From Alphaproteobacteria bacterium (lineage in GTDB: Bacteria > Pseudomonadota > Alphaproteobacteria > MPNO01), in contig OY763326.1 of the NCBI GenBank assembly GCA_963667285.1, positions 879,068 through 943,067 on the forward strand: DNA of 64,000 nt, given 5' to 3'. Made by a program: the position numbers and the translations under genes. Shown piece by piece: positions 19,969-45,794 of the stretch (its first letter is position 1; every line of letters begins with the position of its first letter). The notes under the pieces were generated by a model. It was not told the origin of the DNA. It searched no databases and saw nothing but the letters and a program-made list of their open reading frames with translations.

Positions 19969-20009
19969 CGCCGGTCGGGCGTCGGGGCGGGTCAACCGAA
20001 GGGGCGCCA

Positions 20010-25901: not shown

Positions 25902-26900
25902 ATGGCCACGTCTCTATTCGTCGCGACGGGGAACGGGGTCTTCCTCGCGGAGCCGAACGGCGCCGGCCGCGAGACCCGGCCTCTGGGGCTGCAAGGCAAG
26001 GGCATGGTGCGCTGGATCCTGGCCGACCCGTCTTGCGCCGGGCGGGTGTGGGCGGCGACGGAGCGCTCGGGCGTCTGGCGGACCGATGACGGCGGTGCGA
26101 CCTGGACGGAGAAGAACGAGGGGCTGGTCTACAAGCACACCCTGTCGCTCGCCCTTCATCCGGCGACCGGCACGCTCTATGCCGGCACGGAGCCCGCCTG
26201 CATCTTCAGATCGAGCGATGCCGGGGACAGCTGGGTCGAGCTCGAGACCCTGCGGCGACTCGGGACGCGCAAGGACTGGACCTTCCCGGGGCCGCCCTAT
26301 GTCGCCCATGTGCGCGGCATCGGGCTGTCGCCATCCGACCCCGAAATCATCTTCGGCGCGGTCGAGGAGGGTTGGCTGGTGCGCTCGCGCGACGGCGGCG
26401 AGAGCTGGGTCAACATCAAGGACGGCACCGAGTTCGACTCGCACACCGTCACCGTGCTTCCGGATGGCGAAACCGTGATCTCGGCGTCGGGCAAGGGCCT
26501 GTACCGGAGCACCGACGGAGGCGAGACATTTGCCGCCGCCTATGCCGGGATCGCACACCCCTATCTGATAAACGTCGCGGTTCATCCCGGCCGGCCCGAC
26601 ATGCTGTTCACCGCCGGCGCGGAGGTGCCGCCGCCGGGCTGGCGTCGGCCGGAAGGCGCCGGGGCGGGGTTCTACCGGAGCGAGGACGGCGGGGAGAGCT
26701 GGTCCCGCCTGACCGGCGGGCTGCCGGAGCGCATCGGGCCGGCGCCGCGCTCGATCGCGATCGACCCCGCGTCGCCCGAGACCGTGTTCGTCGGGCTCAA
26801 CGACGGCGAAATCTGGGCCAGCCGGGACGGTGGGGAGGCGTTCGACCGTATCGTCGCCGGCCTGCCCCCCGTGCTGGGGATCGCACCGGTCCCCGCCTGA
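25902..26900 (+). CDS. BNR/Asp-box repeat protein (paralog of 16989-18131)
   Basis: Asp-boxes TDDGGATW, SSDAGDSW, SRDGGESW, STDGGETF, SEDGGESW, SRDGGEAF. Same domain order as its paralog. Confidence 0.65.
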   Translation: MATSLFVATGNGVFLAEPNGAGRETRPLGLQGKGMVRWILADPSCAGRVWAATERSGVWRTDDGGATWTEKNEGLVYKHTLSLALHPATGTLYAGTEPACIFRSSDAGDSWVELETLRRLGTRKDWTFPGPPYVAHVRGIGLSPSDPEIIFGAVEEGWLVRSRDGGESWVNIKDGTEFDSHTVTVLPDGETVISASGKGLYRSTDGGETFAAAYAGIAHPYLINVAVHPGRPDMLFTAGAEVPPPGWRRPEGAGAGFYRSEDGGESWSRLTGGLPERIGPAPRSIAIDPASPETVFVGLNDGEIWASRDGGEAFDRIVAGLPPVLGIAPVPA

Positions 26901-26907: not shown

Positions 26908-27861
26908 ATGGGCGGAGCGGAAAGGCGGGACAGCTTCGACGGCATCGCCATCTTCGTCCGCGTGGCGCAAAGCGCCAGCTTCTCGGAAGCGGCGCGCCAT
27001 CTCGGCTTGTCGGCATCCGGTGTCAGCCGGGCGATCGCGCGGCTCGAATCGAGGCTCGGAACCCGGCTGGTCGACCGGACGACGCGGCGCCTGTCGCTGA
27101 CCGCCGAGGGCGGCGCCTATTTCGAGCGGTGCCGGCACATCCTCGCCGAACTCGAAGCCGCCGAGAACGCCCTGGCCGAGGCGCGCGGCGTGCCGCGAGG
27201 ACCTCTGCGGATCCAGGTGCCGCGCGGATTCGGCCGCACGGTGGTCGTGCCGGCGCTCGCCGGTTTCCTTTCGCGCCACCCCGAGGTGACCGTCGACGTT
27301 ACCGTCAACGACGGCGCCATCGATCCGAGCGAAGAAGGGGTGGACGCCTCCTTCATTCTGGGCGAGCCGGCGACCGGCCGCTTTGTCGCCCGCAGGATCT
27401 GCACCATCGGCTATGCCGTCTGTGCCGCGCCCGGCTACCTCGAGGCTCATGGCAGGCCGATGGGCCTCGACGATCTGGCCCGGCACCGATGTCTCAACTA
27501 CCTCCGTCCGCGTTCCGGGCGCCGACGCGACTGGACGCTGTGCAGCCACGGCAAGGAAGTCTCGGTGCCGGTCGCGTCGGTGCTCGACGCCAACGATATC
27601 CAGGCAGTTCACCAGGCGGCCCTGTCGGGTGCCGGGCTCGCCTATCTGATGGATTTCCTGATCGCGGGCGACGTTGCGGCCGGACGGCTGGAAATCGTCC
27701 TGCCGGGCCATGTCCTGCGTGGCGTACCGGTGTTCCTGTGCTATCCGCGGAACCCGCATCGCACGCCGCGCCTGACCGCCTTCGTCGACTATCTCGGCGA
27801 GACCCTGCCCGCCGGCGCGGACTGGTCGATCGACCGGCTGGTCGGCTCGACTATTGACTGA
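26908..27861 (+). CDS. LysR-family transcriptional regulator
   Basis: N-terminal wHTH FDGIAIFVRVAQSASFSEAARHLGLSASGVSRAIARLE. LysR substrate-binding domain. About 317 aa. Confidence 0.85.
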   Translation: MGGAERRDSFDGIAIFVRVAQSASFSEAARHLGLSASGVSRAIARLESRLGTRLVDRTTRRLSLTAEGGAYFERCRHILAELEAAENALAEARGVPRGPLRIQVPRGFGRTVVVPALAGFLSRHPEVTVDVTVNDGAIDPSEEGVDASFILGEPATGRFVARRICTIGYAVCAAPGYLEAHGRPMGLDDLARHRCLNYLRPRSGRRRDWTLCSHGKEVSVPVASVLDANDIQAVHQAALSGAGLAYLMDFLIAGDVAAGRLEIVLPGHVLRGVPVFLCYPRNPHRTPRLTAFVDYLGETLPAGADWSIDRLVGSTID

Positions 27862-27940: not shown

Positions 27941-28759
27941 TTGCGCACGGTGAAACGGATGACCGGCGAATTCGAGCGCGAAACCGTCGACCTGCCCACC
28001 GGGCCTGTGACGTATTTCGCAGCCGGGGCGGGGCACGATGTGGTCTATCTCCACCCCGCCGCCGGGATGCGCATTTCCGACCCGCTCCGTCGCCTGGCCC
28101 GACGATTTCGCGTCTGGGCGCCGGTCGTGCCGGGTTTCGACGACACCTTGGCGCACGAAACGGTCGATACGATGCCGGCGCTCGCCGATCTGCTCGCGGC
28201 GTTCATCGCAGCCGGGCCCGGCCGCGCGGTCGATGTCGTGGGCAGCTCGCTGGGCGGCTGGCTCGGCGCCTGGCTCGCGGTTCGCCACCCGGATCTGGTG
28301 GAACATCTCGTGCTCGCGGCGCCCGCCGGATTCAGACCGGTCGACGCGCCGCCGCTCAGCTTCGATCCCGACATCATGCGCGCCCAGCTCTACGCCCATC
28401 CCGAACGGGTGCCGCCCGACGACAAGCCGCCGGAGATGCGCGAGGCCAATGCCAGGGCGGTCGCCCGATACGGGCTGGGCAACTCCCACGACGCCGGACT
28501 CCAGGCGAAGGTAGCGGCGATCGCCTGCCAGACCCTGATCCTCCACGGTACGCTCGACGTGCGGGTTCCGGCGTCGGGCGTGCAGATGCTCAAGGAGCGA
28601 ATTCCCAATTCGCAGCTGGTCTATGTCTACGACGCCGCCCACAGCCTGGAGCTCGACCAGCCCGGGCGCGTGGGCGCCCTGATCGAGGATTTCCTCGTCA
28701 GGGGCGAGGCCTTCATCGTCAACCAGGCGCTGCCCGAAGCGGTGGAGACCGTTCCATGA
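27941..28759 (+). CDS. Alpha/beta-fold hydrolase
   Basis: GSSLGGW nucleophile elbow. HGTLD and AAHSLE catalytic-triad context. 4-bp overlap with the downstream LLM gene. Confidence 0.75.
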   Translation: MRTVKRMTGEFERETVDLPTGPVTYFAAGAGHDVVYLHPAAGMRISDPLRRLARRFRVWAPVVPGFDDTLAHETVDTMPALADLLAAFIAAGPGRAVDVVGSSLGGWLGAWLAVRHPDLVEHLVLAAPAGFRPVDAPPLSFDPDIMRAQLYAHPERVPPDDKPPEMREANARAVARYGLGNSHDAGLQAKVAAIACQTLILHGTLDVRVPASGVQMLKERIPNSQLVYVYDAAHSLELDQPGRVGALIEDFLVRGEAFIVNQALPEAVETVP

Positions 28760-29907
28760 GATTCTCGCAAACCCACCACATGCCCTATACGGATATCGAC
28801 GAGGCCGGGCTGGGTTGGCCGATCTCGAACAGCCGGTTCGATTCCGGGCGCGCGATCGAAATGTTCCGCGCCTACACCCACGCCAAGGTGTATGCCGAAG
28901 AGTGCGGGTTCGACGCGATCGGCTGCAACGAGCACCACATGAGCCCGTTCGGCATGATGCCGAACCCCAACCTGATCGCCGCCGCGGTGACGGAACGCAC
29001 GTCGAGCGCCGAGATCCAGCTCAGCGGCAACATCGTGCCCCTCACCAACCCGATCCGGATCGCCGAAGAATACGCGATGATCGACGTGATGAGCGGCGGA
29101 CGGCTGATGGCGGGCTTCATGCGCGGCATCCCGCACGAATATGTCGCCTACAACGTCGCGCCGGACGAATCCTGGAGCCGCATGCGCGAAGCCGTGCAGC
29201 TGATCCTCAAGGCCTGGACCGAGCCGGAGCCGTTCGGCTGGGAAGGCGAGCATTACCGCTTCCGCGCCGTCTCGATCTGGCCCAAGCCGGTCCAGCGGCC
29301 GCACCCGCCGATCCTGATGTCGGGTGGCAGCCCGACATCGGCGCGCTTCGCCGCCGAACACCGGGCGATCATGGGCATCCTGCGCGTGCTCAATTTCGAC
29401 CAGGCGCTGCAGCTCATCGACATCTACAGGCAGAAGGCCCGCGAGGACGGGTGGGAGCCCGGCCCCGACCGGTTCATGGTCGGCGTGCCGACGGCGGTCG
29501 CCGAGACCGTCGAGGAGGCGAAGCGGGCGCTGCATGACGGCACCCAGTATTTCTTCGATGTCCTGCAAGGCGGCATAAACCGGGCCCAGCTCCTGGTGCT
29601 CCAGAAGACGCGCTTCAACGCCGACGACACCCTGGTGCGCCCGGTCGACAAGGACCAGCGGATGAAGGCGACGCCGGTCGAGCAGCGCATCGAGAACGGC
29701 CAGGTGCTCTGCGGCACGCCCGACATGGTGGTCGACCAGATCGAGCGCATGCACGCCGCGCTGAATCACGGGCACATGAATCTGATCGTCAAGGTCGGCA
29801 ATATGCCGGACGATTTCGTCCTTCGGAGCATGAAGCTGCTCGGCGACCATGTGTTCCCGGAGGTCAAGCATCTCGGCCGGGCGACCGAAACCGTCGCCGC
29901 CGAGTAG
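28756..29907 (+). CDS. Luciferase-like (LLM-class) flavin-dependent monooxygenase/oxidoreductase
   Basis: 383 aa TIM-barrel LLM pattern (AEECGFDAIGCNEHH..., LSGGRLMAGF). Translationally coupled to the upstream hydrolase. Confidence 0.8.
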   Translation: MRFSQTHHMPYTDIDEAGLGWPISNSRFDSGRAIEMFRAYTHAKVYAEECGFDAIGCNEHHMSPFGMMPNPNLIAAAVTERTSSAEIQLSGNIVPLTNPIRIAEEYAMIDVMSGGRLMAGFMRGIPHEYVAYNVAPDESWSRMREAVQLILKAWTEPEPFGWEGEHYRFRAVSIWPKPVQRPHPPILMSGGSPTSARFAAEHRAIMGILRVLNFDQALQLIDIYRQKAREDGWEPGPDRFMVGVPTAVAETVEEAKRALHDGTQYFFDVLQGGINRAQLLVLQKTRFNADDTLVRPVDKDQRMKATPVEQRIENGQVLCGTPDMVVDQIERMHAALNHGHMNLIVKVGNMPDDFVLRSMKLLGDHVFPEVKHLGRATETVAAE

Positions 29908-29936
29908 CCCGGCCCGGGGCACGCAGGAGCGAATCG

Positions 29937-30293
29937 ATGCCGAGCGTCACCGTCGTCAACCGGGGCAACCGGTCTTTCGAGGTCAGGCAGGGCCGCGCGC
30001 TGCTGACCGGCGCGCGCGAAGCCGGGCTGCCCTGGCGCTGGTATTGCGGCGGCGAGGCGCTCTGCGGAACCTGCTGCATGCTGGTGGTCGACGGCGCGCT
30101 CGACGAGCCCAACGAGATCGAGCGCTATTTCATCGAGGGCTGGGGCTACCATCCCGGCTTTCGCCTCGCCTGTCAGGCGCGTGTCGTCGAGCCGGTCGCG
30201 GTAATATCCTGCGCCGAGGAAGGCTATGACAGGGATGCGGTGCTCGCCGCCTACGACGCGGCGGTGGAGCAGAGAAAAGGGGATCGACCATGA
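29937..30293 (+). CDS. [2Fe-2S] ferredoxin
   Basis: 118 aa with a CGGEALCGTCC ... C cysteine cluster typical of 2Fe-2S ferredoxins. Overlaps the next gene by 4 bp. Confidence 0.7.
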   Translation: MPSVTVVNRGNRSFEVRQGRALLTGAREAGLPWRWYCGGEALCGTCCMLVVDGALDEPNEIERYFIEGWGYHPGFRLACQARVVEPVAVISCAEEGYDRDAVLAAYDAAVEQRKGDRP

Positions 30294-30943
30294 CGGAGAC
30301 CGACACCGCATCCGCGCTGACACCCGAATCCTTCGCCCTGATGAAGGACCTGGTCGGCAAGGAAGCGGCGCTGCTGACGATGGACCTGATGAGCGAGGAA
30401 TCGAAGCTCCGCTACCGCAGCTTCTACCCCTGCGGCGACATGCTGATCGGGCTGCGCTATGCCGAGCCGCGACCCGACGGCAAGGGGTTCAAGCCCGGCC
30501 GGTCGCTAAAGATCATGAACGGCAGGATCGTCTCCGAGCCGCGCCGGGACGTCCAGTTCACCCCGCCGCTGGTGCCGCATCATGCCGAGCATGTCTACGG
30601 CTTCTGGCACATCAACGACCAGCAGGAGATGGTCATGAACCTGAAGCTCGGCGACGACCGCCGGCTGACGGTGCTGATCGAGGGCTATCCCGAGCGCGGG
30701 CGGATCGACCGCTTCGCCTGGTTCTGCCTCGAATGCCTGAACCCGCTCTACATGGTCGAGGTGGAGACCGCCAGGGTCGGGCTGGGCGGCTACTACGCCG
30801 TCCAGGAGGACGGGTTCGCGGCGTTCAACGGCGACGAAAAGCTGCGGACATGCGCGTCATGCGGCGCCGTCCACCCGGTCGCCTATTCGATCTTTCCGTG
30901 GAACGATACGCCGGAAGAACGCGCGGCCCGCGAGCTCTGGTAG
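30290..30943 (+). CDS. Cupin protein with C-terminal Cys4 rubredoxin-like ribbon, 3-hydroxyanthranilate-3,4-dioxygenase (HAAO)-like
   Basis: WFCLECLNPLY...(about 35 aa)...RTCASCGAVHPV: two CxxC pairs spaced as in bacterial HAAO (W-Y-C-x2-C...R-C-x2-C-G-x-H). Cupin core upstream. One of three paralogs in the window. Confidence 0.5.
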   Translation: MTETDTASALTPESFALMKDLVGKEAALLTMDLMSEESKLRYRSFYPCGDMLIGLRYAEPRPDGKGFKPGRSLKIMNGRIVSEPRRDVQFTPPLVPHHAEHVYGFWHINDQQEMVMNLKLGDDRRLTVLIEGYPERGRIDRFAWFCLECLNPLYMVEVETARVGLGGYYAVQEDGFAAFNGDEKLRTCASCGAVHPVAYSIFPWNDTPEERAARELW

Positions 30944-30983
30944 GGTCGCCCGGCGGCCCGAGAACAAGGACAGGGAGAAGGAC

Positions 30984-32009
30984 ATGAGACTGCTGAAGAC
31001 CCGGCATCCGGCGGCCGTGCTCATCGCGGCGGGCGCGATTGCCCTCGCCGGCGGGACGCAGACCGCCCAGGCCCAGCTGTCGCTCGCCAAGGTCAAGGTC
31101 GCGATGCCGTTGACCGTCCTGGTCCAGCGCGCGGCGCTCGAAGGCGCGATCGCGTCCGGCGCGTTCAAGCGCGAGGGTCTCGCGGTCGAGGTCATCTCAT
31201 TCCGCTCCTGGACGGAGCCGGTGCAGTCGCTCGCCGCGGACGCGGCGCAGTTCGCGCTCGGCGGCGGAAGCTTCATCCGTGCCTCGCTCGGCGGCAAGGC
31301 GCCGGTGCGCGCCATCGCGCTGGTCTCCAGCCGCTACCCCTACGCCTTCTGGGTCAAGAAATCGAGCGGCATCAAGTCGTTCGAGGACCTCCGGGGCAAG
31401 ACGATCCAGACCGTGCGGGCGGGCGAGACGCTCGACAACGTCTGGCAGCAGATCCTGGCGACCGCCGGCCTCGGGATCACCGACGTCAAGCGGTTCGAAT
31501 CCTTCAACGGCTTCGGCTCGCTGATGAGCGGCAACGCCGATATCGCCAATATCTCCAGCAACTGGATCGGAAAGTCCCGAAAGGCCGGGCTGGTTCTCCT
31601 GCTGGACTACAACGACTGGCGCAAGGAGCAGGGGCTGCCGACGAACGAGGCCCAGAATCTCGGCTGGGGCACGTCGCTGAAGATGCTCAAGCAGCACCCG
31701 GATACCGTGCGCGCCTTCCTCCGCGCGCTCGCCAGGGCGACCGTCCGGCTGCGCGAGGACCGCGACTTCGCCGTCTCGGTGCTCACCGCCAAGCCCTATT
31801 CCCAGACCGAGGAAACGGCGAAGGAGGTGTGGGAGATGCACCGCAACGCGTGGATGCTCCGCCTCGACCCGTCCAAGGGCGACTATTCGTTCGACGCCGC
31901 GATGTCGGAAGTCGCGCTGCGGCGGCCGAAAGGGTCGATCGACGTGCGTCAGGCGAGCGCGCTGGAGCCGATCGCCGAGGTGTTGAAGGAGCTGAAGATC
32001 TCCTTCTGA
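30984..32009 (+). CDS. ABC transporter substrate-binding protein, NitT/TauT (SsuA/NMT1-like) family
   Basis: Signal peptide MRLLKTRHPAAVLIAAGAIALAGGTQTAQA. NMT1/SsuA-type periplasmic-binding fold by composition and length (341 aa). Confidence 0.8.
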   Translation: MRLLKTRHPAAVLIAAGAIALAGGTQTAQAQLSLAKVKVAMPLTVLVQRAALEGAIASGAFKREGLAVEVISFRSWTEPVQSLAADAAQFALGGGSFIRASLGGKAPVRAIALVSSRYPYAFWVKKSSGIKSFEDLRGKTIQTVRAGETLDNVWQQILATAGLGITDVKRFESFNGFGSLMSGNADIANISSNWIGKSRKAGLVLLLDYNDWRKEQGLPTNEAQNLGWGTSLKMLKQHPDTVRAFLRALARATVRLREDRDFAVSVLTAKPYSQTEETAKEVWEMHRNAWMLRLDPSKGDYSFDAAMSEVALRRPKGSIDVRQASALEPIAEVLKELKISF

Positions 32010-32029
32010 CCGGCGGCGGTGCCGGGAGC

Positions 32030-32794
32030 ATGGAGGAGCCGAGCCTCGAGGTGATCGGGGTCACCAAGTCGTTCCCGACCGCACAGGGCCGGCTCCAGGT
32101 GCTCGATGGGATCGACATGACCCAGGCCCGCGGCGAGGTGGTCTCCATCGTCGGCGCGAGCGGATCGGGCAAGACCACATTCCTCAGGCTCGTCGCCGGG
32201 CTCGATACGCCTGACAGCGGCGCGCTCAGGCTCGACGGGCGGGAGATCGACGGACCGACTCCCGAACGGTCGCTGATCTTCCAGCAGTTCGGCCTGATGC
32301 CGTGGCTCAGCGTGCTGGAGAACGTCCTGTTCGGGCTGGCGACGAGCGGCCTCTCGAAGACCGAGCAGCGCGACCGCGCCAACGACGTCATCGGGCGCGT
32401 GGGACTGCAGGGGTTCGAGGACTTCCACCCCAAGGCGCTGTCCGGCGGCATGCAGCAGAGGGTCGGGATCGCGCGGGCGCTCGCGGTCGAACCGCGGCTC
32501 CTGCTGTGCGACGAGCCCTTCGCATCGGTCGACGCGATGACCCGCCAGACCATGCAGACCGACCTTCTCGACATCGTGACCCAGCACAGGGCGACCGTGC
32601 TGCTGGTGACCCACGACATCGAGGAGGCGCTGTTCCTCGGCGACCGGGTGCTGGTGTTCTCGTCGCGCCCGGCTCGGGTGATCGAGGAGATCGACGTGGC
32701 GATCGCCAAGCCGCGCGAGCATTCGGTCAGAATGTCGGCCGCGTTCCAGGAACAAAGGGCGATGCTTTGGGAACTCCTCCAGGCAGCCGCCTAG
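32030..32794 (+). CDS. ABC transporter ATP-binding protein (NitT/TauT family)
   Basis: Walker A GASGSGKTT. Signature LSGGMQQRVGIARAL. Walker B LLLCDEPFASVD. The start coordinate is good to plus or minus 1-2 nt. Confidence 0.85.
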   Translation: MEEPSLEVIGVTKSFPTAQGRLQVLDGIDMTQARGEVVSIVGASGSGKTTFLRLVAGLDTPDSGALRLDGREIDGPTPERSLIFQQFGLMPWLSVLENVLFGLATSGLSKTEQRDRANDVIGRVGLQGFEDFHPKALSGGMQQRVGIARALAVEPRLLLCDEPFASVDAMTRQTMQTDLLDIVTQHRATVLLVTHDIEEALFLGDRVLVFSSRPARVIEEIDVAIAKPREHSVRMSAAFQEQRAMLWELLQAAA

Positions 32795-32814
32795 AGAACG
32801 GCGAACCCGCCCGG

Positions 32815-33570
32815 TTGCGCGCGCTTGCGGCGCGGCCGGGCACGCTCTCGCTGCTCATCCTCCTGGCCATCCTCGCCGGCTGGGAGGCCGGCGGGAGGAC
32901 CGGCGTGCTCGACACGTTTTTCTTCAGCACCCCCGGTGCGATCGCGGTCAAGGCCTGGGCGATGCTGATCGACGGCAACCTCCTGTTCCATAGCCTGCGC
33001 ACGGGCTACGCCTATGTCGCCGGGGTGGTCGCGGCGATCGCGGTGGGGGCGGTGGCGGGGCTCGCCATGGGCTGGTGGCGGCGCTTCGGCGATGTGGTCG
33101 ATCCCTACGTCGTCTTCTTCTCGGCGATGCCGCGCATCGCCCTGTTCCCGGTCATCATCCTGATTTTCGGCATCGGCGACCTGTCGCGGACGATCATCGT
33201 CTTCCTCGGCGTGGTCTTTCCGGTCCTGTTCAACGCCTATATCGGCGCCAAGCAGACGCCGCGGCTCCTGATCGATGTGGGACGGGTTTTCGGCTACTCG
33301 CACAACCGGCTGTTTACCGCCGTGGTCCTGCCGGCGGCGCTGCCCTATCTGATCGCGGGGTTCCGCATCGGGGTGACGCTCGGGATCATCATGATCGTGG
33401 TCGCCGAGTTCCTCGCCGCGTCGGCCGGGCTCGGGCAGCAGATCGCGGTCACCGCGCAGAATTACCAGATCGCCGAGATGTGGGCCTGGGTGCTCTACAC
33501 CTCGTTCTACGCCCTGCTGATCGTCCGCGGCATGGACCGCTTCGAGCGCTGGGCGATGCGCTGGGCCTGA
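32815..33570 (+). CDS. ABC transporter permease (NitT/TauT family)
   Basis: Six-TM BPD-type permease. The start was guessed at a TTG just after the ATPase stop. The upstream part of the track ORF is an artefact. Confidence 0.7.
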   Translation: MRALAARPGTLSLLILLAILAGWEAGGRTGVLDTFFFSTPGAIAVKAWAMLIDGNLLFHSLRTGYAYVAGVVAAIAVGAVAGLAMGWWRRFGDVVDPYVVFFSAMPRIALFPVIILIFGIGDLSRTIIVFLGVVFPVLFNAYIGAKQTPRLLIDVGRVFGYSHNRLFTAVVLPAALPYLIAGFRIGVTLGIIMIVVAEFLAASAGLGQQIAVTAQNYQIAEMWAWVLYTSFYALLIVRGMDRFERWAMRWA

Positions 33571-33581
33571 GGAGGGTCGTC

Positions 33582-34730
33582 ATGAGCGAACAAATCGTCT
33601 CCATCGACGTGCGTCCGGCGGAGTTCGGGGACCGGAGCCCGCGCCAGGGGGTGCAGGATTTGGTGAGACCGCGTATCTACGGCCGGCTCGCCGAGGAAGG
33701 CTGCGGCAAGGACGTCGCCCATCTCGTCCTCCACCCCGCCGTCAACTTCATGCACCACTACCTGATCGAGCCGATGCAGGCGCGCGGGCGGGCGATCCTC
33801 GGGCTCAACACGCGCTACGCGAACAACGACTCGACCCTGCTGGTCGAGCGCGTCATCCAGGATATCGGCGCGGGCGTAAAGTTCCTGCGCGACCGGGGCT
33901 ACCGGCGGATCGTCTATATCGGCAACTCGGGCGGCGGTTCGGTCGGCACGCTCTACCAGGCGCAGGCGGAACGGCTCACGATCGACACCACGCCGGACGG
34001 GCTTGCCATCGACCTCTACCCGGAGGACCTGCCGCCGGTCGACGCGATCGTGCTCGCGTCCTGCCATATCGGACGGGGCCGGCATTTCGGCATGTCGCTC
34101 GATCCTTCGGTGCTCGACGAGCGCGAGCTCACCCGTACCGATCCCGAGCTCGACATGTTCAACCCCGCCAACGGCCCGCCTTACGACCGCGCTTGGCTCG
34201 AGCGCTACGCCGAGGCGCAATCGGCGCGGCACCGGCGGATCACCGGCTGGGTCCTCGGGCGGCTGCGCGAGATCGACGCGATGCCGCAAGAGGCCGGGCT
34301 CGCCGACGAGCCGTTCCTGATCCACCGCACCTACGCCCGGCCGCAGATCCTCGATCCGACGATCGACCCCAACGACAGGCCCGTCGCGTCCTCGATATGG
34401 GGCGGGGCCAGGGCGACCAACTACGCCGCCACGGTTCTCGGGCGGTTCACCACGCTCCGGTCCTATCTCAGCCAGTGGAGCCTGCTCGGCCGCGCGGCGG
34501 ACGGCCCGGCGCGTCTCGCCGAAACCTCGGTGCCGGCGATCAACATCCGGTTCTCCGCCGACGAGGGCACCTATCCGAGCCTGTCGCAGGAATATTCCGA
34601 CGCCGCGGACGGACGCTGCGAGGATTACACCCTCGTCGGCGCGCGGCACTTCCCCTACAAGCAGGAGAACGGCCCGGCGCTGATTTCCGAGCTCGCCGAC
34701 GTGATCGCCGAATGGGGCGACCAGGGCTGA
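33582..34730 (+). CDS. Alpha/beta-hydrolase-fold protein with G-N-S-G-G nucleophile elbow (unknown specificity)
   Basis: IVYIGNSGGGSVGTLYQ (Ser nucleophile) and a C-terminal GARHFPY His. 382 aa. About 60% identical by eye to the minus-strand gene at 35385-36527. Confidence 0.6.
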   Translation: MSEQIVSIDVRPAEFGDRSPRQGVQDLVRPRIYGRLAEEGCGKDVAHLVLHPAVNFMHHYLIEPMQARGRAILGLNTRYANNDSTLLVERVIQDIGAGVKFLRDRGYRRIVYIGNSGGGSVGTLYQAQAERLTIDTTPDGLAIDLYPEDLPPVDAIVLASCHIGRGRHFGMSLDPSVLDERELTRTDPELDMFNPANGPPYDRAWLERYAEAQSARHRRITGWVLGRLREIDAMPQEAGLADEPFLIHRTYARPQILDPTIDPNDRPVASSIWGGARATNYAATVLGRFTTLRSYLSQWSLLGRAADGPARLAETSVPAINIRFSADEGTYPSLSQEYSDAADGRCEDYTLVGARHFPYKQENGPALISELADVIAEWGDQG

Positions 34731-34750
34731 CCTGCGCCGGAGGCGAACCA

Positions 34751-35377
34751 ATGAACATTCTGGAAGACGTGACACTCCCCGGCCGGCAAGGCGGCGCCTG
34801 GATCGTGCGGAAGGGACAGCATGTTCGGGTCATCGACGTCGAAGGCGGCCCGATCGGCGATTTCGTCTGCTTCAACGCCGACGACCTCACCGAGCGGTTC
34901 AGCCAGACGCGCACCCGGACGAACCACGGCAAGTTTCTCCTGTCCGAGGGAGACCATCTCTACTCCCGCGCAAACAACCCGATGCTGACGATCGTGGAGG
35001 ACAGCTACGGCATCCACGACCTGCAATACGGAATGTGCTCGGCCTGGGTCTACGAGAATTTCAGGAACGACGAGTATCGCGGCTTCGCGGCGGACGCGTT
35101 GACACTGGGCGGACCGCTCGGAATGCCGACTTTCGGCTGCTACGAAGTGCTGCAGCGGGCGCTCGCGGACTGGCCCATCGAGCCGCACGACATTCCGGAC
35201 CCGATCAACCTGTTCCAGACCGTCGACTACGATGCGGACAGGGGAACCTTCACCCTTGTCGACGGGCGCAGCAAGCCGGGCGATTACATCGACTTCGTCG
35301 CCCGCATGGACACGCTGTGCGCCCTCAGCGCCTGCCCGTCGATGGGGCGGGCGCTCCGCGTCCAGATCCACGAATAG
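34751..35377 (+). CDS. DUF1989 family protein (urea-carboxylase-associated protein family)
   Basis: 208 aa. Conserved GIHDLQYGMCSAWVYEN and FVARMDTLCALSACP blocks of DUF1989. Intact copy of the remnant at 16507-16900. Confidence 0.7.
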   Translation: MNILEDVTLPGRQGGAWIVRKGQHVRVIDVEGGPIGDFVCFNADDLTERFSQTRTRTNHGKFLLSEGDHLYSRANNPMLTIVEDSYGIHDLQYGMCSAWVYENFRNDEYRGFAADALTLGGPLGMPTFGCYEVLQRALADWPIEPHDIPDPINLFQTVDYDADRGTFTLVDGRSKPGDYIDFVARMDTLCALSACPSMGRALRVQIHE

Positions 35378-35384
35378 GAACGGA

Positions 35385-36527
35385 TCAGGCGGACCACCCG
35401 GCAAGCAAGTCGGCGAGCTCGGCGATCAGCTCGTCCCCGTCCGGCTGGGTGAAGGGGAAGTGCATCGCGCCCTTGAGTAGATAGGTCTCGCAGCGCGATC
35501 CCACGGCCTCGGTGTACCGGCCGGTCTCCGAAGGAAAACAGCCCTCGTCGGCCGAGTACTCGACATTCAGCACCGGCACCGAGGTTTCCGCCAGGCGCGC
35601 CGGGCCATCGGCGACGCTGAGCGGGCTCCACTGGCTGAGATAGGACCGGAGCGTGGTGAAGCGGCCGAACACGCCGGCGGAGTAGTTCACCGCCCGCGCC
35701 TTGCCGAAGATCGTCGCATCGCCCGCCGGCCGGTCGTTGGGATCGATCGAGCGGTCGAGCGTGGCCGGCTTCGCGCAAGTACGGTGGATGACGAAGCCTT
35801 GGTCGTCGGCACGGGGATGGGCCTCCAGCTGACGCAGCCGCGCCAGTACCCACCCGGTGATCCGGTCGTGCCGCGCGGCCTGTGCCGCCTCGTAGCGCGC
35901 GAGCCAGTCGCGATCGTAGGGCGGCCCGTTGTCGGGATCGTACATGTCGAGTGCCGGGTCGGCCGAAAGCGCATCCGCCTCGTCGATCACCGACGGATCG
36001 AGCGCCGAGCGGAACTGCTGGTGGCGCCCCGGATGGGCGCTCAGCAGGACCACCGCGTCCGCCGGTGGGAGGTCTTCGGGTACGATGTCGAAGGGCCGGC
36101 CGTCGGGCGTCGTCTCGATGGTGAGGGTCTCGGCCTGCGCCTGATAGAGCGACATCACCGGACCGCCGCCCGAGTTGCCCACCAGAACGACGCGCCGGTA
36201 ACCGCGCTCCCGCAGCCAGCGTACGCCTCCGCCGACATCCTGGATCAGCCGCTCCATCAGCAGCGCGCTGTCGTTGTGGAGATGGCGGCTGGTGAGGGTG
36301 AGCACGGCGCGGCCGCGCGCGGCCAGCGGCGCCTGGGCGTAGTGGTGCAAGAAGCTCACCGCCGGGTGCATGAAGAGGAACGCGACATTCTTGCCGCAGC
36401 CCGCATCGGCGATCTTGCCGAGGATTCGGGGGCGCACCCGGTCGGCGATCCCCTGCCCGACGGGCGGGGTATTGCTCGGCCGCAGGTCTATCGAGACGAG
36501 CTCGCCGCGCTCGGCGGGGTGGGTCAT
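35385..36527 (-). CDS. Alpha/beta-hydrolase-fold protein with G-N-S-G-G elbow (paralog of 33582-34730)
   Basis: VVLVGNSGGGPVMSLYQ and KGAMHFPF. Collinear similarity to its paralog over the full length. Start ATG overlaps the stop of the upstream HAAO-like gene (ATGA). Confidence 0.6.
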   Translation of the reverse strand: MTHPAERGELVSIDLRPSNTPPVGQGIADRVRPRILGKIADAGCGKNVAFLFMHPAVSFLHHYAQAPLAARGRAVLTLTSRHLHNDSALLMERLIQDVGGGVRWLRERGYRRVVLVGNSGGGPVMSLYQAQAETLTIETTPDGRPFDIVPEDLPPADAVVLLSAHPGRHQQFRSALDPSVIDEADALSADPALDMYDPDNGPPYDRDWLARYEAAQAARHDRITGWVLARLRQLEAHPRADDQGFVIHRTCAKPATLDRSIDPNDRPAGDATIFGKARAVNYSAGVFGRFTTLRSYLSQWSPLSVADGPARLAETSVPVLNVEYSADEGCFPSETGRYTEAVGSRCETYLLKGAMHFPFTQPDGDELIAELADLLAGWSA

Positions 36528-37087
36528 GCGCCCCTGGCCATGTCCTCGCGCAGCTCGGCCGCCACCGCCCCCCATCCATAGGGAGCGAGATCGATCTCGT
36601 CATGCGTCCGGCCGCAGGACGGGCAGGTCCGGCGCGCCGCGTCGGCGTTGAACGCGCGGCAGGCGCGGAGATAGCCCTCCTGCGGGATCTCCTCCGCCGT
36701 GTCCCAGACATCGCGGGCGATCTCCGCGCCGCAGCCCTCGCAATACCAGGCGACCGCCTCGAGGCCGGGGTGCTCGGCCTTGTAGCGAAGCTGGACGCAT
36801 TCGCCGTCGGGGACGATGCGATGCGGCGTGCCGGAGGGCACGTAGACGAAATCGCCCGGAACCACCGGGTGGAAACGGACCGGGCCGTCGGGGAATTCGA
36901 CCCGGCCCTCGCCCGACATGTTGACCAGCACCGTGTCGTGCTCGCAGATCAGGAAGAAGGGCTGGGGCGTGTCGTTGCGGCTGAGGCAGATCTGCGGGTC
37001 CACGCCCGCCGGCAGCATGGGGTACTCGTCGTAAGGGCCGCGCTTCGCGGCCTCGTCGAAGGCGGCGAAGCGCTGCTTGCGTGCCAT
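36524..37087 (-). CDS. HAAO-like cupin dioxygenase with C-terminal Cys4 ribbon
   Basis: VAWYCEGCGAEIARDVWD...ARRTCPSCGRTHDE closely mirrors the bacterial 3-hydroxyanthranilate 3,4-dioxygenase C-terminus (FEWYCDACG...RRCPHCG.VHP). Cupin block PFFLICEHDTV...VPSGTPHRIVP. 187 aa, matching HAAO size. Confidence 0.55.
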   Translation of the reverse strand: MARKQRFAAFDEAAKRGPYDEYPMLPAGVDPQICLSRNDTPQPFFLICEHDTVLVNMSGEGRVEFPDGPVRFHPVVPGDFVYVPSGTPHRIVPDGECVQLRYKAEHPGLEAVAWYCEGCGAEIARDVWDTAEEIPQEGYLRACRAFNADAARRTCPSCGRTHDEIDLAPYGWGAVAAELREDMARGA

Positions 37088-37102: not shown

Positions 37103-37828
37103 CTAGCCGGCCGCGGCCGCCGTCTCGCTCAGGCTCTGATGCGCCTCGCGGATGATGTCGGTCATGTCGCGGTAGCGGTCCCAGCCCCAGCGCCCGAGCG
37201 GGAACGGCGGGTTGACGTTGCCGCATTTGGGGCAGGTCCGGTTGCGCTCATCGGCGTTGTAGTTGAGCGCCGCCTGAGCGCTGCCATAGATCGTGTGCAG
37301 GTGGCCGACGGGACCGACCTCGTCCTTCTGCTTTCCCCGTCTGGGCGGCGTCGAATCGAATTCTTCCCGGTAGATTTCGGTCGAGCAGGCGGCGCAGGTG
37401 AAGGCAACGGCCTCTCTTTGCGGGACGCCGGTGGACTGGCGCTGGGTGACCGAGACCAGCGAGAAGCTTTCGGGACTGTCCGGTTCGCTCAACAGGTTTC
37501 CGACGCCGTGGCTGCGCGCGCTGGCGCGCACCAGCCCGGCCTTGCCGCGCCCCGTGGTGGCGCCCGAACCGAAGACGATCGCCACCTCGTCGACCGTGTT
37601 CTCATGCTCGAAATAGCCGTAATCGCCGCCCGACTGGCCGTAGAACAGCGCGATGGTGGGCACCATCGCGCCTTCATCCACATAGGGGAACATCGGCGTC
37701 AGCGTGCTGACCAGGGTGCGCGCGTAGTCGTAGACATTGCACTTCAGCGGCTGCTTGTCCGTCGCCGGCGGCGGCATGGAGACCGTCTTTCCCGCCCTGT
37801 CGTTCACATCCCCCTCCTCACCTTCCAT
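37103..37828 (-). CDS. HAAO-like cupin with C-terminal Cys4 ribbon (more divergent paralog)
   Basis: VAFTCAACSTEIYREEFD...RNRTCPKCGNVNPP. Putative metal ligands in FEHENTVDE (H...E spaced by 6, as in HAAO). The start is uncertain; an internal Met lies at about 37777. Confidence 0.45.
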   Translation of the reverse strand: MEGEEGDVNDRAGKTVSMPPPATDKQPLKCNVYDYARTLVSTLTPMFPYVDEGAMVPTIALFYGQSGGDYGYFEHENTVDEVAIVFGSGATTGRGKAGLVRASARSHGVGNLLSEPDSPESFSLVSVTQRQSTGVPQREAVAFTCAACSTEIYREEFDSTPPRRGKQKDEVGPVGHLHTIYGSAQAALNYNADERNRTCPKCGNVNPPFPLGRWGWDRYRDMTDIIREAHQSLSETAAAAG

Positions 37829-40938: not shown

Positions 40939-41439
40939 TCAGAACGGCGCCAGCAGGGCGCCGTGCGGCGCATCGCAGTTGAGGAGGTCGACGCGCTTGC
41001 TGGCTATACGCCACTCGCCTGCCACGCGCCGAAGCCTGTAGTCGTAGGCGCCGGCGAAGACCCGCTGGTCGTCGGCGCGATAGTCGAGCATCACGAAGTT
41101 CGCGGTGACGCGACAGGCGTCATCGCCGTTCCTTTCGCGTATTGCAACGTTGCCGACGACATGGCGGGTGCGAACGGGCGGGATGTTCGCGAATGCCTTG
41201 TCGTGCCGCAGCCGACGCGCCCGCGCCCGCAACAGGGTGACGCCCTCGTGGATCAGCGACGCGGTATCCGAGGCGCTGGACTGGTCCGGTTGCGACGGCA
41301 CCCAGTAGAGTCCGTCTTCGCAGAACAGGTCGACCCATTCGTCGTAGCGTCCGCCGTCGATCGACGCGCATTCACGAAACAGGAAGTCCTCGATCTCCCT
41401 CTGCAGCAGCAAACCCTCCAGGGACGGGCTGTCGTCCAT
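40939..41439 (-). CDS. Ring-hydroxylating dioxygenase beta (small) subunit
   Basis: 166 aa. N-terminal LQREIEDFLFRECASIDGGRYDEWVDLFCEDGLYWVP is the hallmark beta-subunit motif. Overlaps the upstream alpha gene by 8 bp. Confidence 0.8.
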   Translation of the reverse strand: MDDSPSLEGLLLQREIEDFLFRECASIDGGRYDEWVDLFCEDGLYWVPSQPDQSSASDTASLIHEGVTLLRARARRLRHDKAFANIPPVRTRHVVGNVAIRERNGDDACRVTANFVMLDYRADDQRVFAGAYDYRLRRVAGEWRIASKRVDLLNCDAPHGALLAPF

Positions 41440-41445
41440 CGGCGC

Positions 41446-42756
41446 TCACCCCGACCGCATATAGTCGAGCCAGGCGCGATATTGCGTCCGAATCGGCAGC
41501 TCGCTGGTGCCGGACCCCGCGTAGCCACCCCCGTCGAGCGGTCGGTCGCATCCCTCCTCCCGCTCCAGGTTGATCCATTCGGGCTCGGCGGCGGCAAACC
41601 CGGCCTGGCACCCCTTGTAGATCTCCAGATCGTCCGTGGCGATCAGCGAGGCCGGAGAGTTGAGCGTGGTGAGAAAGCGCACCGCGCTCTCGTAAAGCCA
41701 CTCCGGCGCGCCCTTCAGACGGAAACAGAAACTGTGCGCGATCGTGCGGTCGACCGCGACCGGTTCCACGAAGCGCATCGACTGGAACCGCGGGTTGATC
41801 ACGAAATTGGGATAGATCAGGTGGTTGTACGTGTCCCAGCCGAGTACCGCATCGGCCTGCCCGGTACCGAGGCGGGCGGCGAGAAGCTCGCGATAAGCGT
41901 TGAATTCGGGGGTGTCGGGCATGGCCGAAATCATGCCGCTTTCATAGAACCCGCCGATATAGCTGTGGCCGCGAGCGAAGCCGCAGGTTCCCGCATTGGA
42001 CATGCCCGACAGCGGGATCCCGTTGGCTGCATACATTTGCAACGCCTGCTGTGTCGCGGGATCCGGCGGCGCGCCTGTCTCGAGATCGCGGCCCACGCTG
42101 ATCGACGAATCGTGGACGAAGGTGGGATGGACCAGATCGTTGGCGTTTTCCATGTGCAGCTTCCAGTTGCCCGGGTAGTCCTGGCGAAAGCCGCCGCCCG
42201 CGAGCTCGACCTCGCCGTCGGGCGCGCGGTCGACGAGGTTGTCGAGGGCCTTCGCAGCCGGGCCGAGAAAGCTGGGGAGATCGGGACCGTCCGTGGCAAG
42301 GCTGGCGAACACGAAGCCGCGGTAGTCCGCGGTACGCGGCACCGGGGCAAGCCCGGCATGGGCACCGCCCGGGGAATCGGGGCGGGCATACCCGTCCGGC
42401 TGGGGAACCCCGAGCAGGCGCCCGTCCCGACCGTAGACCCAGCCATGGTAGGGGCACGCAAACCGGTCGGCGGTGCCGCGGTCGGCAATGCACACCAGCA
42501 TGCCGCGATGCAGGCACCGGTTGCGCAGAACGCGGATTTCGCCATCTTCGCCTCGGACGACGAGCAGCGGCTCGCGTCCAATCCTGGCGCGCAGGAAATC
42601 GCCCGGCCGGCGAAGCTGGCTTTGGTGCGCCACGAAGATCCAGGCACGCCCGAATATCCGCTCCATCTCCAATTCGAAGATGGCGGGATCGGCGTAGACG
42701 CGTCGATGGACACGGCCGGGCTCGACCAGGGCTTCCACCGAGGACAGGCCAGTCAT
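41446..42756 (-). CDS. Rieske non-heme-iron ring-hydroxylating oxygenase, alpha subunit
   Basis: Rieske CLHRGMLVC...CPYHGWVYG. 436 aa. Followed by its beta subunit. Confidence 0.8.
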   Translation of the reverse strand: MTGLSSVEALVEPGRVHRRVYADPAIFELEMERIFGRAWIFVAHQSQLRRPGDFLRARIGREPLLVVRGEDGEIRVLRNRCLHRGMLVCIADRGTADRFACPYHGWVYGRDGRLLGVPQPDGYARPDSPGGAHAGLAPVPRTADYRGFVFASLATDGPDLPSFLGPAAKALDNLVDRAPDGEVELAGGGFRQDYPGNWKLHMENANDLVHPTFVHDSSISVGRDLETGAPPDPATQQALQMYAANGIPLSGMSNAGTCGFARGHSYIGGFYESGMISAMPDTPEFNAYRELLAARLGTGQADAVLGWDTYNHLIYPNFVINPRFQSMRFVEPVAVDRTIAHSFCFRLKGAPEWLYESAVRFLTTLNSPASLIATDDLEIYKGCQAGFAAAEPEWINLEREEGCDRPLDGGGYAGSGTSELPIRTQYRAWLDYMRSG

Positions 42757-42821
42757 ATCGGGGCTCCCCGCTGGTTCGGTATCCTAAGCGCCGGGCATGC
42801 GGGTAGGAAACCCCGCCGCCC

Positions 42822-44123
42822 TTATCCCATCGTATCGGGCAGGAACAGAACGATGGATGGGAACGCGACCAGTAGCAGAATTCGCAGGACGTCGGTGACG
42901 ATGAATGGCGCCACACCGCGGTAGATGGTCGACAGCCTGACGTCCCTGGCGACACCGCGGATCACGAACACGTTGAGACCGAATGGCGGCGTGATCAAGC
43001 CCAGCTCCACCGTCATGACCACCACCACGCCGAACCAGATGGGGTCGAAGCCGAGATCGACGATCGCCGGGAATATGATCGGCACGGTCAGGATGATCAT
43101 TGCCAGCGAATCCATCAGGCAGCCGAGTATCAGGTAGAACAACAACAACAGCAGCAGGATGCCGTAAGGTCCGATCGGCAGCGCAAGCAGCAGGTCGGTC
43201 AGTTTCTGCGGCGTCTGGGTAATGGCAAGAAAGACGCCGAACAGCAGGGCCCCGATCAGGATGGTGAATACCGCCCCGGTGGTGCGGACGCTCTCGATCA
43301 GACAGTCGAGCGTTTGCCGCAGGGTCAGGCTGCGCCGAATGACGGCGATCAGGAAAGCGCCGGCCGCGCCCATGCCCGCGGCCTCGGTCGGCGTGAACAC
43401 GCCGCCGTAAATCCCGCCGATCACGAAGAAGAACACCAGCGCGACCGCCCACACATTGCGCAGCGACGCGATCCGTTCGCGCCACGACGCCCGGACCCCG
43501 GCCGGCACCGCATCGGGGTTGAACCAGGCAATGATCTGCACTGTGGTCATGTACATCGCGACCGCCAGCAGGCCCGGAATGAAGGCGGCGATGAACAGGC
43601 GACCGATATCCTGTTGGGTGATGATGCCGTACACCGCCAGCACCACCGACGGCGGAATCAGAATGCCGAGCGTGCCGCCCGCGGCGATAACGCCGGTCGA
43701 AATGCTGCTGCTATAGCCGTAGTCGCGCATTTCCGGCAGGGCGACCTTGGCCATCGTCGCTGAGGTCGCGACCGAGGAGCCGCAGATCGCCGCGAAACCG
43801 GAGCAGGCCGCGAGCGTCGCCAGCGACAAGCCGCCGCGGCGGTGGCCGAGCCAGGCGTTGCCGGCGCGGAACAGCTCGCGGCTCATACCGGACGCGCTGG
43901 CGAACGCGCCCATGAGGATGAACAGCGGGATCAGCCCGAACGCGAAGTCGGTGGCGTTGCGGATCGGCGACAGCGCCACCAGGCGCAGCGCCGGGTCGAT
44001 GCCGCTCAGGCTGGCGAAGCCGCCGATGCCGACGATCGCCATGGCGATACCGACGGGAACGCGCAGCAACATCAGCACGAGCAGGACGACGAAGCCGAGC
44101 CCTGCGATGAGGTCGTTGTCCAC
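42822..44123 (-). CDS. dctM: TRAP transporter large permease (DctM family)
   Basis: DctM motifs (GGIYGGVFTPTEAAGMG, TPPFGLNVFV). Start inferred at a GTG near 44123. The upstream part of the track ORF is an artefact. Confidence 0.85.
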   Translation of the reverse strand: MDNDLIAGLGFVVLLVLMLLRVPVGIAMAIVGIGGFASLSGIDPALRLVALSPIRNATDFAFGLIPLFILMGAFASASGMSRELFRAGNAWLGHRRGGLSLATLAACSGFAAICGSSVATSATMAKVALPEMRDYGYSSSISTGVIAAGGTLGILIPPSVVLAVYGIITQQDIGRLFIAAFIPGLLAVAMYMTTVQIIAWFNPDAVPAGVRASWRERIASLRNVWAVALVFFFVIGGIYGGVFTPTEAAGMGAAGAFLIAVIRRSLTLRQTLDCLIESVRTTGAVFTILIGALLFGVFLAITQTPQKLTDLLLALPIGPYGILLLLLLFYLILGCLMDSLAMIILTVPIIFPAIVDLGFDPIWFGVVVVMTVELGLITPPFGLNVFVIRGVARDVRLSTIYRGVAPFIVTDVLRILLLVAFPSIVLFLPDTMG

Positions 44124-44134
44124 CCGCGCCGCCG

Positions 44135-44629
44135 CTATTCGTGTGGCAGGCGCGCGCCGGTGCCGACCGCGCGGCGGCGCAGCAGCCGCCACAGGCGGAT
44201 CGCCATCAGGATCGTCGCCGCGACGATACCGACCCACGCCAGGGCGTAGAACGGCCAGATGTCGAGGCGCAAGTCGAAGGTCTGCGAGGTCGTCTCGTAG
44301 GTCACGACGATCTTGCGCACCAGCATCCGCGCGAACACCGCCATCGCCACGAGCGAGCAGGCGGTGGCGAAGATATCGATCAGGCGCTTGCCGCGAAGGC
44401 CGACCAGGGTCCACAGCACGTCCATCTGGATGTGCTCGTCGCGATAGCCGGCAACGGCGATGCCCCAGAACACCACAACGCCGATCATCAGCCGACCGAT
44501 ATCGAAACTGTCGGGGACCGGAAAGTTGAACAGGTAGCGCAGAAGGACCGAGGCGAAGGTCAGCGCGGCAACGAAGGCAAGGAATAACCCGGCCAGCGTT
44601 TCGATGCCGGAGATTGCTTTCTGGACCAC
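44135..44629 (-). CDS. dctQ: TRAP transporter small permease (DctQ family)
   Basis: 164 aa, four TM segments, between dctP and dctM. Confidence 0.8.
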   Translation of the reverse strand: MVQKAISGIETLAGLFLAFVAALTFASVLLRYLFNFPVPDSFDIGRLMIGVVVFWGIAVAGYRDEHIQMDVLWTLVGLRGKRLIDIFATACSLVAMAVFARMLVRKIVVTYETTSQTFDLRLDIWPFYALAWVGIVAATILMAIRLWRLLRRRAVGTGARLPHE

Positions 44630-44709
44630 GGCTGAAGACGCAAGCGCCGACGAATGGGCAAGTCGGGTGGGGCGCGGGTCGGCCCCGCCCGATGGTCGCG
44701 GCCGGCGCC

Positions 44710-45738: not shown

Positions 45739-45794
45739 GGTAGCTGTCCTCCCCTTTTTTCTGGGATGAATTAGATGGAGCCGGGCGAGGGGGG

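Follow-up and report, generated by a model that had tools for sequence, protein, structure and literature searches.

Convergent paralogues of an uncharacterised predicted alpha/beta-hydrolase family in an alphaproteobacterial genome and the oxygenase-type genes beside them

Known hydrolases and the HydA/HydB locus

The meta-cleavage product (MCP) C-C hydrolases, among them BphD, MhpC, HbpD and DxnB2, combine the alpha/beta-hydrolase fold with a Ser-Asp-His triad and serve as the hydrolase of hydroxylase/ring-cleaving dioxygenase/hydrolase trios; the nucleophile-elbow motif of BphD and MhpC is G-N-S-x-G-G. Here we describe a pair of genes, named HydA and HydB, whose products resemble these enzymes in predicted fold, candidate triad and genomic role. 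They were found in a stretch of 64,000 nt from an alphaproteobacterial genome (contig OY763326.1, positions 879,068 to 943,067), which is called the window in the following. HydA (33582-34730, plus strand, 382 aa) and HydB (35385-36527, minus strand, 380 aa) are intact open reading frames (ORFs) with the same triad motifs, and they face each other across an intact gene for a DUF1989 protein (34751-35377, plus strand, 208 aa). Unlike the MCP hydrolases, both proteins miss the curated models (Abhydrolase_1; HsaD, BphD and similar models of NCBIfam), and the nearest structures of HydA are esterases instead. These structural neighbours are feruloyl and poly(ethylene terephthalate) (PET)-type esterases and dienelactone-hydrolase-like enzymes (PDB 7QJM, 7QJN, 8B4U, 7D78) with 11-16% sequence identity. 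They cover about two thirds of HydA, and the esterases have neither the large lid nor the common genomic context of the family.

Among publications, we found the family mentioned only through one protein, sphantq_4474 from Sphingobium sp. AntQ-1 (pANTQ-1); a broader search of the literature on luciferase-like flavin monooxygenases (LLMs), hydrolases and ring cleavage yielded nothing on the family, and no member with a described assay turned up in the literature searched. This protein and HydA align over 330 aa with 41% identity (E 2e-75); it shares the G-x-S-G-G, D-E and H-F motifs and is likewise encoded in a catabolic cluster with an LLM. It differs from HydA in its G-H-S-G-G elbow, in the direct adjacency of the LLM gene, in the lack of a cupin, VOC or DUF1989 neighbour and in being single-copy at its locus. 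It was co-induced with the neighbouring LLM on anthraquinone, and hydrolysis of a Baeyer-Villiger lactone was proposed for it without biochemistry (PMC9836352).

We propose that each of the two hydrolase copies acts on the product of an oxygenase step and that they belong to two convergent units of one catabolic island, a reading to which we assign a probability of roughly 55%. The sections below present the properties of the hydrolase family and its genomic partners that bear on this proposal.

Fold, family and age of the paralogues

An exact-sequence look-up found neither HydA nor HydB on record. In searches of Pfam and NCBIfam (E ≤ 0.01) and of PDB sequences, neither protein gave a match at threshold. 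At E ≤ 1, 24 of 59 homologues touched Abhydrolase_1 (best E 1e-3), and some touched Abhydrolase_1/6, Hydrolase_4 or DUF3530. The family is mid-sized, with more than 2190 matches in a 90%-clustered database. A profile search against representatives of 50%-identity clusters gave 1814 matches at E ≤ 1e-3, 1143 at 1e-10 and 328 at 1e-30. More than 590 relatives occur in species-representative genomes, mainly in metagenome-assembled genomes of Rhodospirillales and in Variovorax, Ramlibacter, Xenophilus, sphingomonads and actinomycetes. An earlier inspection of this DNA, made from the letters alone and referred to below as the sequence-only reading, had called the protein an uncharacterised serine hydrolase of unusual length. 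This description agrees with our searches, in which neither a curated model nor a biochemical study was found, and we regard HydA and HydB as members of a distinct lineage of alpha/beta-fold serine hydrolases that is covered by no curated model.

According to both structure searches, a confident AlphaFold2 model of HydA derived from 59 homologues (pLDDT 93, pTM 0.93) has the alpha/beta-hydrolase fold. In this model, Ser116 of the sequence G114-N-S116-G-G118 is located between strand 109-115 and helix 117-130, Asp327 of S-A-D-E-G comes after strand 319-324 and His356 after strand 346-351, which is the order of nucleophile elbow, acid and histidine of alpha/beta-fold serine hydrolases. All three residues are present in HydA and HydB and invariant in the 59 homologues, and the SADE and GAxH regions align with the corresponding part of the alpha/beta hydrolase 9pir in the PDB. 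Ser116-Asp327-His356 is consequently regarded as a candidate triad at the canonical positions of the modelled fold. The extra length of the proteins is due to an insert of about 160 residues (approximately 160-318) that is rich in invariant Arg, Asp and His. It follows strand 155-159 and would form a conserved lid at the usual lid position. In the oxyanion-hole region, the family has an invariant H-P (His51-Pro52) where H-G is usual. The members with the candidate triad also share an invariant Asn115 and invariant Arg residues at positions 78, 165, 216, 249, 266 and 288, which is compatible with a polar subsite like the dienoate-binding one of BphD (Arg, Asn, Trp).

As the sequence-only reading had stated, HydA and HydB are collinear paralogues in facing orientation. 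They align end to end in BLASTP (224/376 residues identical, 60%; 76% positives; 7 gaps; E 1e-164), and the common motifs it had listed, SID(V/L)RP, GCGK, GNSGGG, RITGWVL and GRFTTLRSYLSQWS, all lie inside this alignment. A DNA alignment of the two genes shows 68% identity (770 of 1125 positions), which is limited to the coding sequence. A comparison of the region 33.0-37.5 kb with itself revealed as its only long inverted repeats three patches of 77-142 nt with 77-79% identity, all within both coding regions and none in the flanks. The likeness of the two genes is far beyond chance and, judged by these alignments, is a paralogy at the protein level rather than a DNA inverted repeat.

Among the 120 best database homologues, two orthologue groups were distinguished. 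Proteins of the A group are 60-93% identical to HydA and 54-62% to HydB, whereas those of the B group are close to HydB (P0064, 91%; P0073, 88%; P0054, 81%) and only about 57% identical to HydA. In a neighbour-joining tree, the window and the loci L087, L089, L002 and L001 are represented in both the A and the B clade with parallel branching, and the duplication is therefore older than these genomes. By this comparison of sequences, HydA and HydB are anciently diverged. Dating of the duplication by dS was dropped, because a G+C content at third codon positions (GC3) of about 0.9 compresses synonymous divergence; the proportion of synonymous differences (pS) was 0.47 for the paralogues compared to 0.22-0.35 for close orthologues.

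HydA, HydB and the DUF1989 gene are under purifying selection, with dN/dS values of 0.10-0.15 against close orthologues (0.10-0.12 for HydB alone and 0.12-0.13 for the DUF1989 gene). The low dN/dS values together with the intact triad motifs indicate that both hydrolase copies are probably functional. The A and B clades differ by fixed residues at 24 positions and agree at 134 conserved ones. Fixed differences beside catalytic or invariant residues were found at positions 79, 120, 122, 163, 170 and 330-334. This pattern suggests diverged specificities, which it fits better than redundancy.

Wherever genes of both clades were seen, they are neighbours. In L001, a 75% relative, they form a tandem on one strand without DUF1989, and in L002, an 84% relative, they are convergent, again without DUF1989. 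The layout of the window recurs in L087/L088, L089, L095 and L096. In L004, a 93% relative (1195-3674), both HydB and the DUF1989 gene are missing, and HydA faces the cupin-like gene c187 (see below) at a distance of about 90 nt. Most of the family is single-copy, as in Variovorax, Ramlibacter and actinomycetes. A single frameshift each was observed in HydB of L002 (11196-12301) and in HydA of L096 (5834-6981), reflecting either pseudogenisation or an assembly error.

Oxygenase-type partners and competing readings

To describe the genomic context of the family, 92 loci were surveyed by clustering the neighbouring ORFs and subsequent tblastn searches with a handful of representative query proteins. 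A small protein (about 187 aa) of the VOC/glyoxalase family is encoded directly beside the hydrolase in 55 of the 92 loci and an aromatic-ring hydroxylase dependent on flavin adenine dinucleotide (FAD; PF01494 plus Rng_hyd_C) in 29. Adjacent cupins resembling 3-hydroxyanthranilate 3,4-dioxygenase (3HAO) were found in six loci and cupins resembling homogentisate 1,2-dioxygenase (HGO) in two. At least one gene for an oxygenase of these types or for an LLM is adjacent in 66 loci and present within 5 kb in 74. An LLM gene lies within 5 kb in seven loci and is adjacent in one; that of the window is located 3.7 kb upstream of HydA in the same-strand cluster. The VOC protein and the FAD hydroxylase are thus the usual neighbours, and in some lineages HGO-like or 3HAO-like cupins or an LLM are found instead. 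This is the type of gene context known from the MCP hydrolases, including the cupins of the window's clade and of Rhodococcus and the overlap of HydB with c187.

Similar arrangements were found in annotated records. Plasmid records of Cupriavidus necator N-1 and Bosea contain VOC-Hyd pairs, and one of Rhodococcus oxybenzonivorans a pair of 'Homogentisate 1,2-dioxygenase' and Hyd. In an R. opacus record, a LysR gene stands beside the series LLM-cupin-Hyd-cysteine hydrolase-FAD monooxygenase, and in that of Sphingobium sp. AntQ-1 the order is LLM-Hyd. Furthermore, three proteins of 620-652 aa (P0396, P0425 and P0431), which represent separate 50%-identity clusters, are fusions of an N-terminal Hyd part with a C-terminal VOC domain and have the elbow motif G-W-S-G-G. 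The hydrolase part of P0396 shares 36% identity with HydA (E 5e-54), and its VOC part aligns lengthwise with the bacterial VOC neighbour (E 3e-9). Finally, locus L101 has a pair of cupin genes like c241 and c187 of the window in the absence of the Hyd family, and here a canonical Abhydrolase_1 gene (275 aa) adjoins the pair instead. Jointly, the neighbour counts, the plasmid records, the fusions and the substitution in L101 lend most support to a role of the family in a hydrolase step that is tied to a ring-cleaving-type oxygenase.

In the window, HydB is the last gene of the series c241-c187-HydB on the minus strand. The first gene, c241 (37103-37828), encodes a protein of 241 aa (or 234 aa from a GTG at 37807), and c187 (36524-37087), directly upstream of HydB, one of 187 aa with a weak Cupin_2 match and a C-terminal CxxC...CxxC motif. 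The ATG of HydB overlaps the stop codon of c187 as ATGA. This three-gene series is the only part of the minus-strand unit that is kept across the relatives, whereas genes for a short-chain dehydrogenase/reductase (SDR), a SnoaL-like protein and Rieske proteins further upstream of c241 are replaced by others in L089, L095 and L096. Since the upstream genes vary among relatives, the Rieske cluster to which the sequence-only reading had assigned HydB is not its conserved context; its statement that the two copies lie in different operons stands insofar as each closes its own transcription unit.

The genes of the plus-strand unit (27941-35377) overlap or are at most 40 nt apart and were assigned by Pfam and NCBIfam matches. 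The unit begins with genes for a PcaD-like alpha/beta hydrolase (27941-28759), the LLM (28756-29907), a 2Fe-2S ferredoxin (29937-30293) and the 3HAO-like protein c217 (30290-30943; 217 aa). Then follow an NMT1/SsuA-type binding protein (30984-32009), an ABC ATPase (32030-32794) and a permease (about 32740-33570), all on the plus strand and upstream of HydA. The order of the genes is the same in L002, L087 and L095. The operon structure is read from gene spacing alone; the gaps are 11 nt between the permease gene and HydA and 20 nt, including a GGAGG sequence, between HydA and the DUF1989 gene, and on the other strand there is the ATGA overlap of c187 and HydB.

Based on these features, the translation of HydB would be coupled to that of a 3HAO-like cupin with two subunits (c241 plus c187), and HydA would close a unit composed of the small hydrolase, the LLM, the ferredoxin, c217 and the NMT1-type ABC importer. 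An imported substrate, probably an aromatic or N-heteroaromatic acid, would be oxygenated and ring-opened. Ser116 would subsequently attack the carbonyl of the ring-fission product (or of an ester, lactone or amide), by which an acid fragment would be freed. The two copies would have diverged in specificity and serve two related intermediates or branches. The idea of the sequence-only reading that two pathways each possess a copy of one enzymatic step is plausible. We regard the family as a distinct alpha/beta-hydrolase lineage that would perform an already known type of task, and the bond cleaved may be a C-C, ester or amide bond.

Several observations weigh against an oxygenase-coupled role of this kind. 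The neighbour counts were obtained by tblastn with few queries, and many of the loci are from closely related Variovorax and Ramlibacter genomes and not independent. The Hyd-VOC fusions come from short metagenome contigs of 2 kb. The small VOC partners score far below the NCBIfam cut-offs, so that they are putative dioxygenases, and c187, c241 and c217 reach 18-37 bits compared to 3HAO cut-offs of 146-220. Hydrolytic activity itself is deduced from the conserved triad. Finally, the situation in L004 indicates that a single copy may be dispensable, which weakens the step of two specificities.

Among the other explanations, the one suggested by AntQ-1 is that the family hydrolyses lactones or esters after Baeyer-Villiger oxidation by a type II LLM, in which case HydA would serve the LLM encoded at 28756-29907. 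Besides the 41% identity of sphantq_4474 to HydA, the AntQ-1 LLM is 28% identical to that of the window, and both AntQ-1 genes were strongly induced on anthraquinone (PMC9836352). LLM genes also occur in the vicinity of the hydrolase gene in R. opacus, R. oxybenzonivorans, L001 and L007, and the best structural neighbours are esterases. We consider this explanation unlikely, though to be taken seriously: LLM genes are far rarer around the family than adjacent VOC genes (within 5 kb in seven and adjacent in one of the 92 loci, compared to 55), the fusions carry VOC domains and not LLMs, the HydB unit is devoid of an LLM, and the assignment in AntQ-1 is based on transcriptomics and annotation only. 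HydA and HydB might also assemble into a single heteromeric enzyme, in analogy to the paired DUF1989 subunits CgdA and CgdB, which would account for the neighbouring position of A and B genes wherever both were seen, be it in tandem (L001) or convergent (L002, L087, L089, L095, L096 and the window), and for further A/B pairs that seem to come from one contig each (P0003/P0068, P0010/P0087, P0011/P0046). The complete triad in both copies, their location in different transcription units on opposite strands, the presence of HydA alone in L004 and the single-copy state of most of the family make such a heteromer improbable.

Use of the alpha/beta fold for a non-hydrolytic reaction, as in a cofactor-independent oxygenase, a RutD-like perhydrolase or peracid enzyme or an acyltransferase, would fit with the Rut-like gene sets around the L001 pair and the R. 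opacus member and with the H-P sequence (His51-Pro52) in place of H-G. As the Ser-Asp-His triad is complete, invariant and at canonical positions and nothing specific for another chemistry was seen, we attribute a small probability to it, slightly below that of the heteromer. The sequence-only reading had described the locus as a local inverted duplication, and a recent event of this type, leaving two redundant copies around DUF1989, would agree with the convergent orientation, equal length and collinear motifs. It is refuted by the tree, in which the A copy and the B copy of a genome are not each other's closest relatives. In addition, the copies differ at 32% of the nucleotides, their similarity ends with the coding sequence without a flanking repeat, 91-93% identical orthologues of each copy exist in other genomes, the pair is in tandem in L001, and differences are fixed between the clades, all of which leaves a recent duplication with almost no probability.

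If the oxygenase-coupled reading is true, several thousand proteins annotated as 'alpha/beta hydrolase', 'hypothetical' or 'pimeloyl-ACP methyl ester carboxylesterase' could be re-annotated as the hydrolase step in cassettes for oxygenase-driven ring opening. This would concern Rhodospirillales, Burkholderiales (the core genome of Variovorax and Ramlibacter), sphingomonads and actinomycetes, and the Hyd-VOC fusions would offer a direct handle toward the substrate. A more speculative extension, which we regard as possible but doubtful, is that the family represents a second, independent lineage of ring-fission-product hydrolases for one-module VOC and cupin dioxygenases, sometimes fused to the VOC domain. 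The cluster of the window with its LLM, ferredoxin, three 3HAO-like cupins, two hydrolases, DUF1989 protein and NMT1-type importer would then encode an undescribed N-heteroaromatic or aminophenolic pathway. For the window, the record is corrected: the locus holds an old, conserved pair of paralogues in what would be an ordinary catabolic island in a Defluviicoccus-like alphaproteobacterium, without a structural rearrangement and with DUF1989 as an accessory. Of more interest than the local gene arrangement is a by-product, the link of the family to VOC and cupin oxygenases, of which the fusions are a part.

DUF1989, the cupins and the wider window

The closest described relatives of the DUF1989 protein are CgdAB (UAAP1/UAAP2) and the trimethylamine N-oxide (TMAO) demethylase Tdm. 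The protein of the window resembles them in matching PF09347 from end to end (E 2.1e-46; profile positions 2-168 of 168), which confirms the intact gene noted by the sequence-only reading, and in its matches to PDB 3DI4 (E 5e-23), 3ORU and the Tdm chains. It reached 106, 82 and 67 bits with the UAAP1, UAAP2 and Tdm models, for which the cut-offs are 285, 206 and 1100, respectively. In contrast to CgdAB, it is encoded not as an A/B pair but as one gene with HydA on one side and HydB on the other, and in contrast to both CgdAB and Tdm, its neighbourhood encodes neither a urea/guanidine carboxylase nor an allophanate hydrolase or a GCV_T domain. In 24 homologues, Cys96, Cys130, Cys190, Cys195, His89 and Asp90 are conserved. 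A zinc site formed by three Cys residues was described for DUF1989 domains (PMC12560246); the conserved Cys set is compatible with such a site, and the protein probably binds zinc.

A pairing of the hydrolase family with DUF1989, as assumed in the sequence-only reading, was not observed at the level of the family. DUF1989 is adjacent in three of the 92 loci, all from the window's own clade. It is missing in L001, L002 and L004, and its 66-71% identical homologues lie in unrelated contexts, so that an obligate partnership was rejected. The protein belongs to a stand-alone subfamily of about 208 aa that shows 58-97% identity among the best 120 matches and occurs in several phyla. Homologues with 82-97% identity have the HydA/HydB context. 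One with 71% identity is encoded beside a DDAH/ADI-type enzyme (amidinohydrolase), a molybdenum hydroxylase of the xanthine-dehydrogenase type and an LLM, and one with 66% identity among unrelated genes. We therefore consider DUF1989 a lineage-specific accessory insert and no constant partner of the hydrolase family. The 66-71% homologues (L097, 5793-11145; L099, 7001-7630) show an unusually high conservation. A literature search on DUF1989 found nothing on this gene context.

The DUF1989 gene starts with the ATG at 34751, located 20 nt past the HydA stop codon and 7 nt past a GGAGG sequence. Because of this short gap and the position of GGAGG, it is probably co-transcribed with HydA. Its stop codon ends at 35377 and that of HydB begins at 35385; the two genes face each other and almost abut, as noticed in the sequence-only reading, with 7 nt between the stops and not 8 bp. 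A terminator between these convergent stops was rejected, as they are only 7 nt apart and a scan showed no convincing one there. Neither a guanidine nor another riboswitch was found upstream of the DUF1989 gene, as there is no Rfam hit in the window, and the window also has no tRNA.

The proteins c217, c187 and c241 are mutual paralogues with common Cys motifs; c187 and c241 are 28-29% identical to c217, which served as the alignment reference. None of them matched a Pfam family at threshold. For c187, 300 homologues were found; it matched the NCBIfam 3HAO model with E 4.5e-8, below the cut-off, and 3HAO chains of the PDB with E 2e-3, where the motifs WYC..C and CP.CG were aligned. The three proteins distantly resemble 3-hydroxyanthranilate 3,4-dioxygenase (NbaC/HAO) in cupin motif 2 and the rubredoxin-like CxxC...CxxC and differ from it by the organization as a large-small gene pair with a third paralogue. 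The large-small pair of the c241-c187 type is kept in L087, L089, L095, L096, L002, L004, L100 and L101 and may represent an undescribed two-subunit cupin oxygenase. In the distant genomes L100 (6307-7558) and L101 (6274-7588), the pair is located beside genes for NMT1-type binding proteins. Upstream of c241, in the gap of 111 nt after the SDR gene, a promoter-like sequence TTGGCG-16-TATAAT (37883-37856, minus strand; 10/12 matches) is present. It was the sole sigma-70-like match in a scan of 27.5-41 kb, where 1.3 were expected by chance, and is accordingly a weak indication. As a separate observation, the VOC neighbour in Xenophilus/Variovorax (L030, 9433-9996) resembles PDB 9U42, a 'Glyoxalase' of 182 aa (E 1.4e-38), of which a literature search found no mention.

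In the vicinity of the L001 pair (386-2884, 7199-9799) and of the single R. opacus member (L090, 3583-9422), genes for an LLM, an isochorismatase-type cysteine hydrolase and small alpha/beta hydrolases were observed, and in L001 only, also one for a YjgF-family protein. We take this set of LLM, cysteine hydrolase, YjgF protein and small hydrolase to resemble the Rut pyrimidine pathway, and by this analogy it hints at an N-heterocyclic substrate.

The HydA unit is preceded on the plus strand by a gene for a BNR/Sortilin-repeat protein (25902-26900), which weakly matches the F510_1955-family glycosylhydrolase, and by a LysR regulator gene (about 26908-27861). Both genes are also found before the cluster in L002 and L087, and a similar BNR gene is present in L001. 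The regions 2913-24923 and 40939-53800 of the window are rich in catabolic and transport genes, including several TRAP transporters and an amidohydrolase. They encode a UbiD-family decarboxylase (9197-10642), hydantoinase/oxoprolinase A and B (19797-23712), a Rieske oxygenase of the homotrimeric type (23709-24923), Rieske alpha and beta subunits (40939-42756) and the glutamate synthase gltBD (47785-53800).

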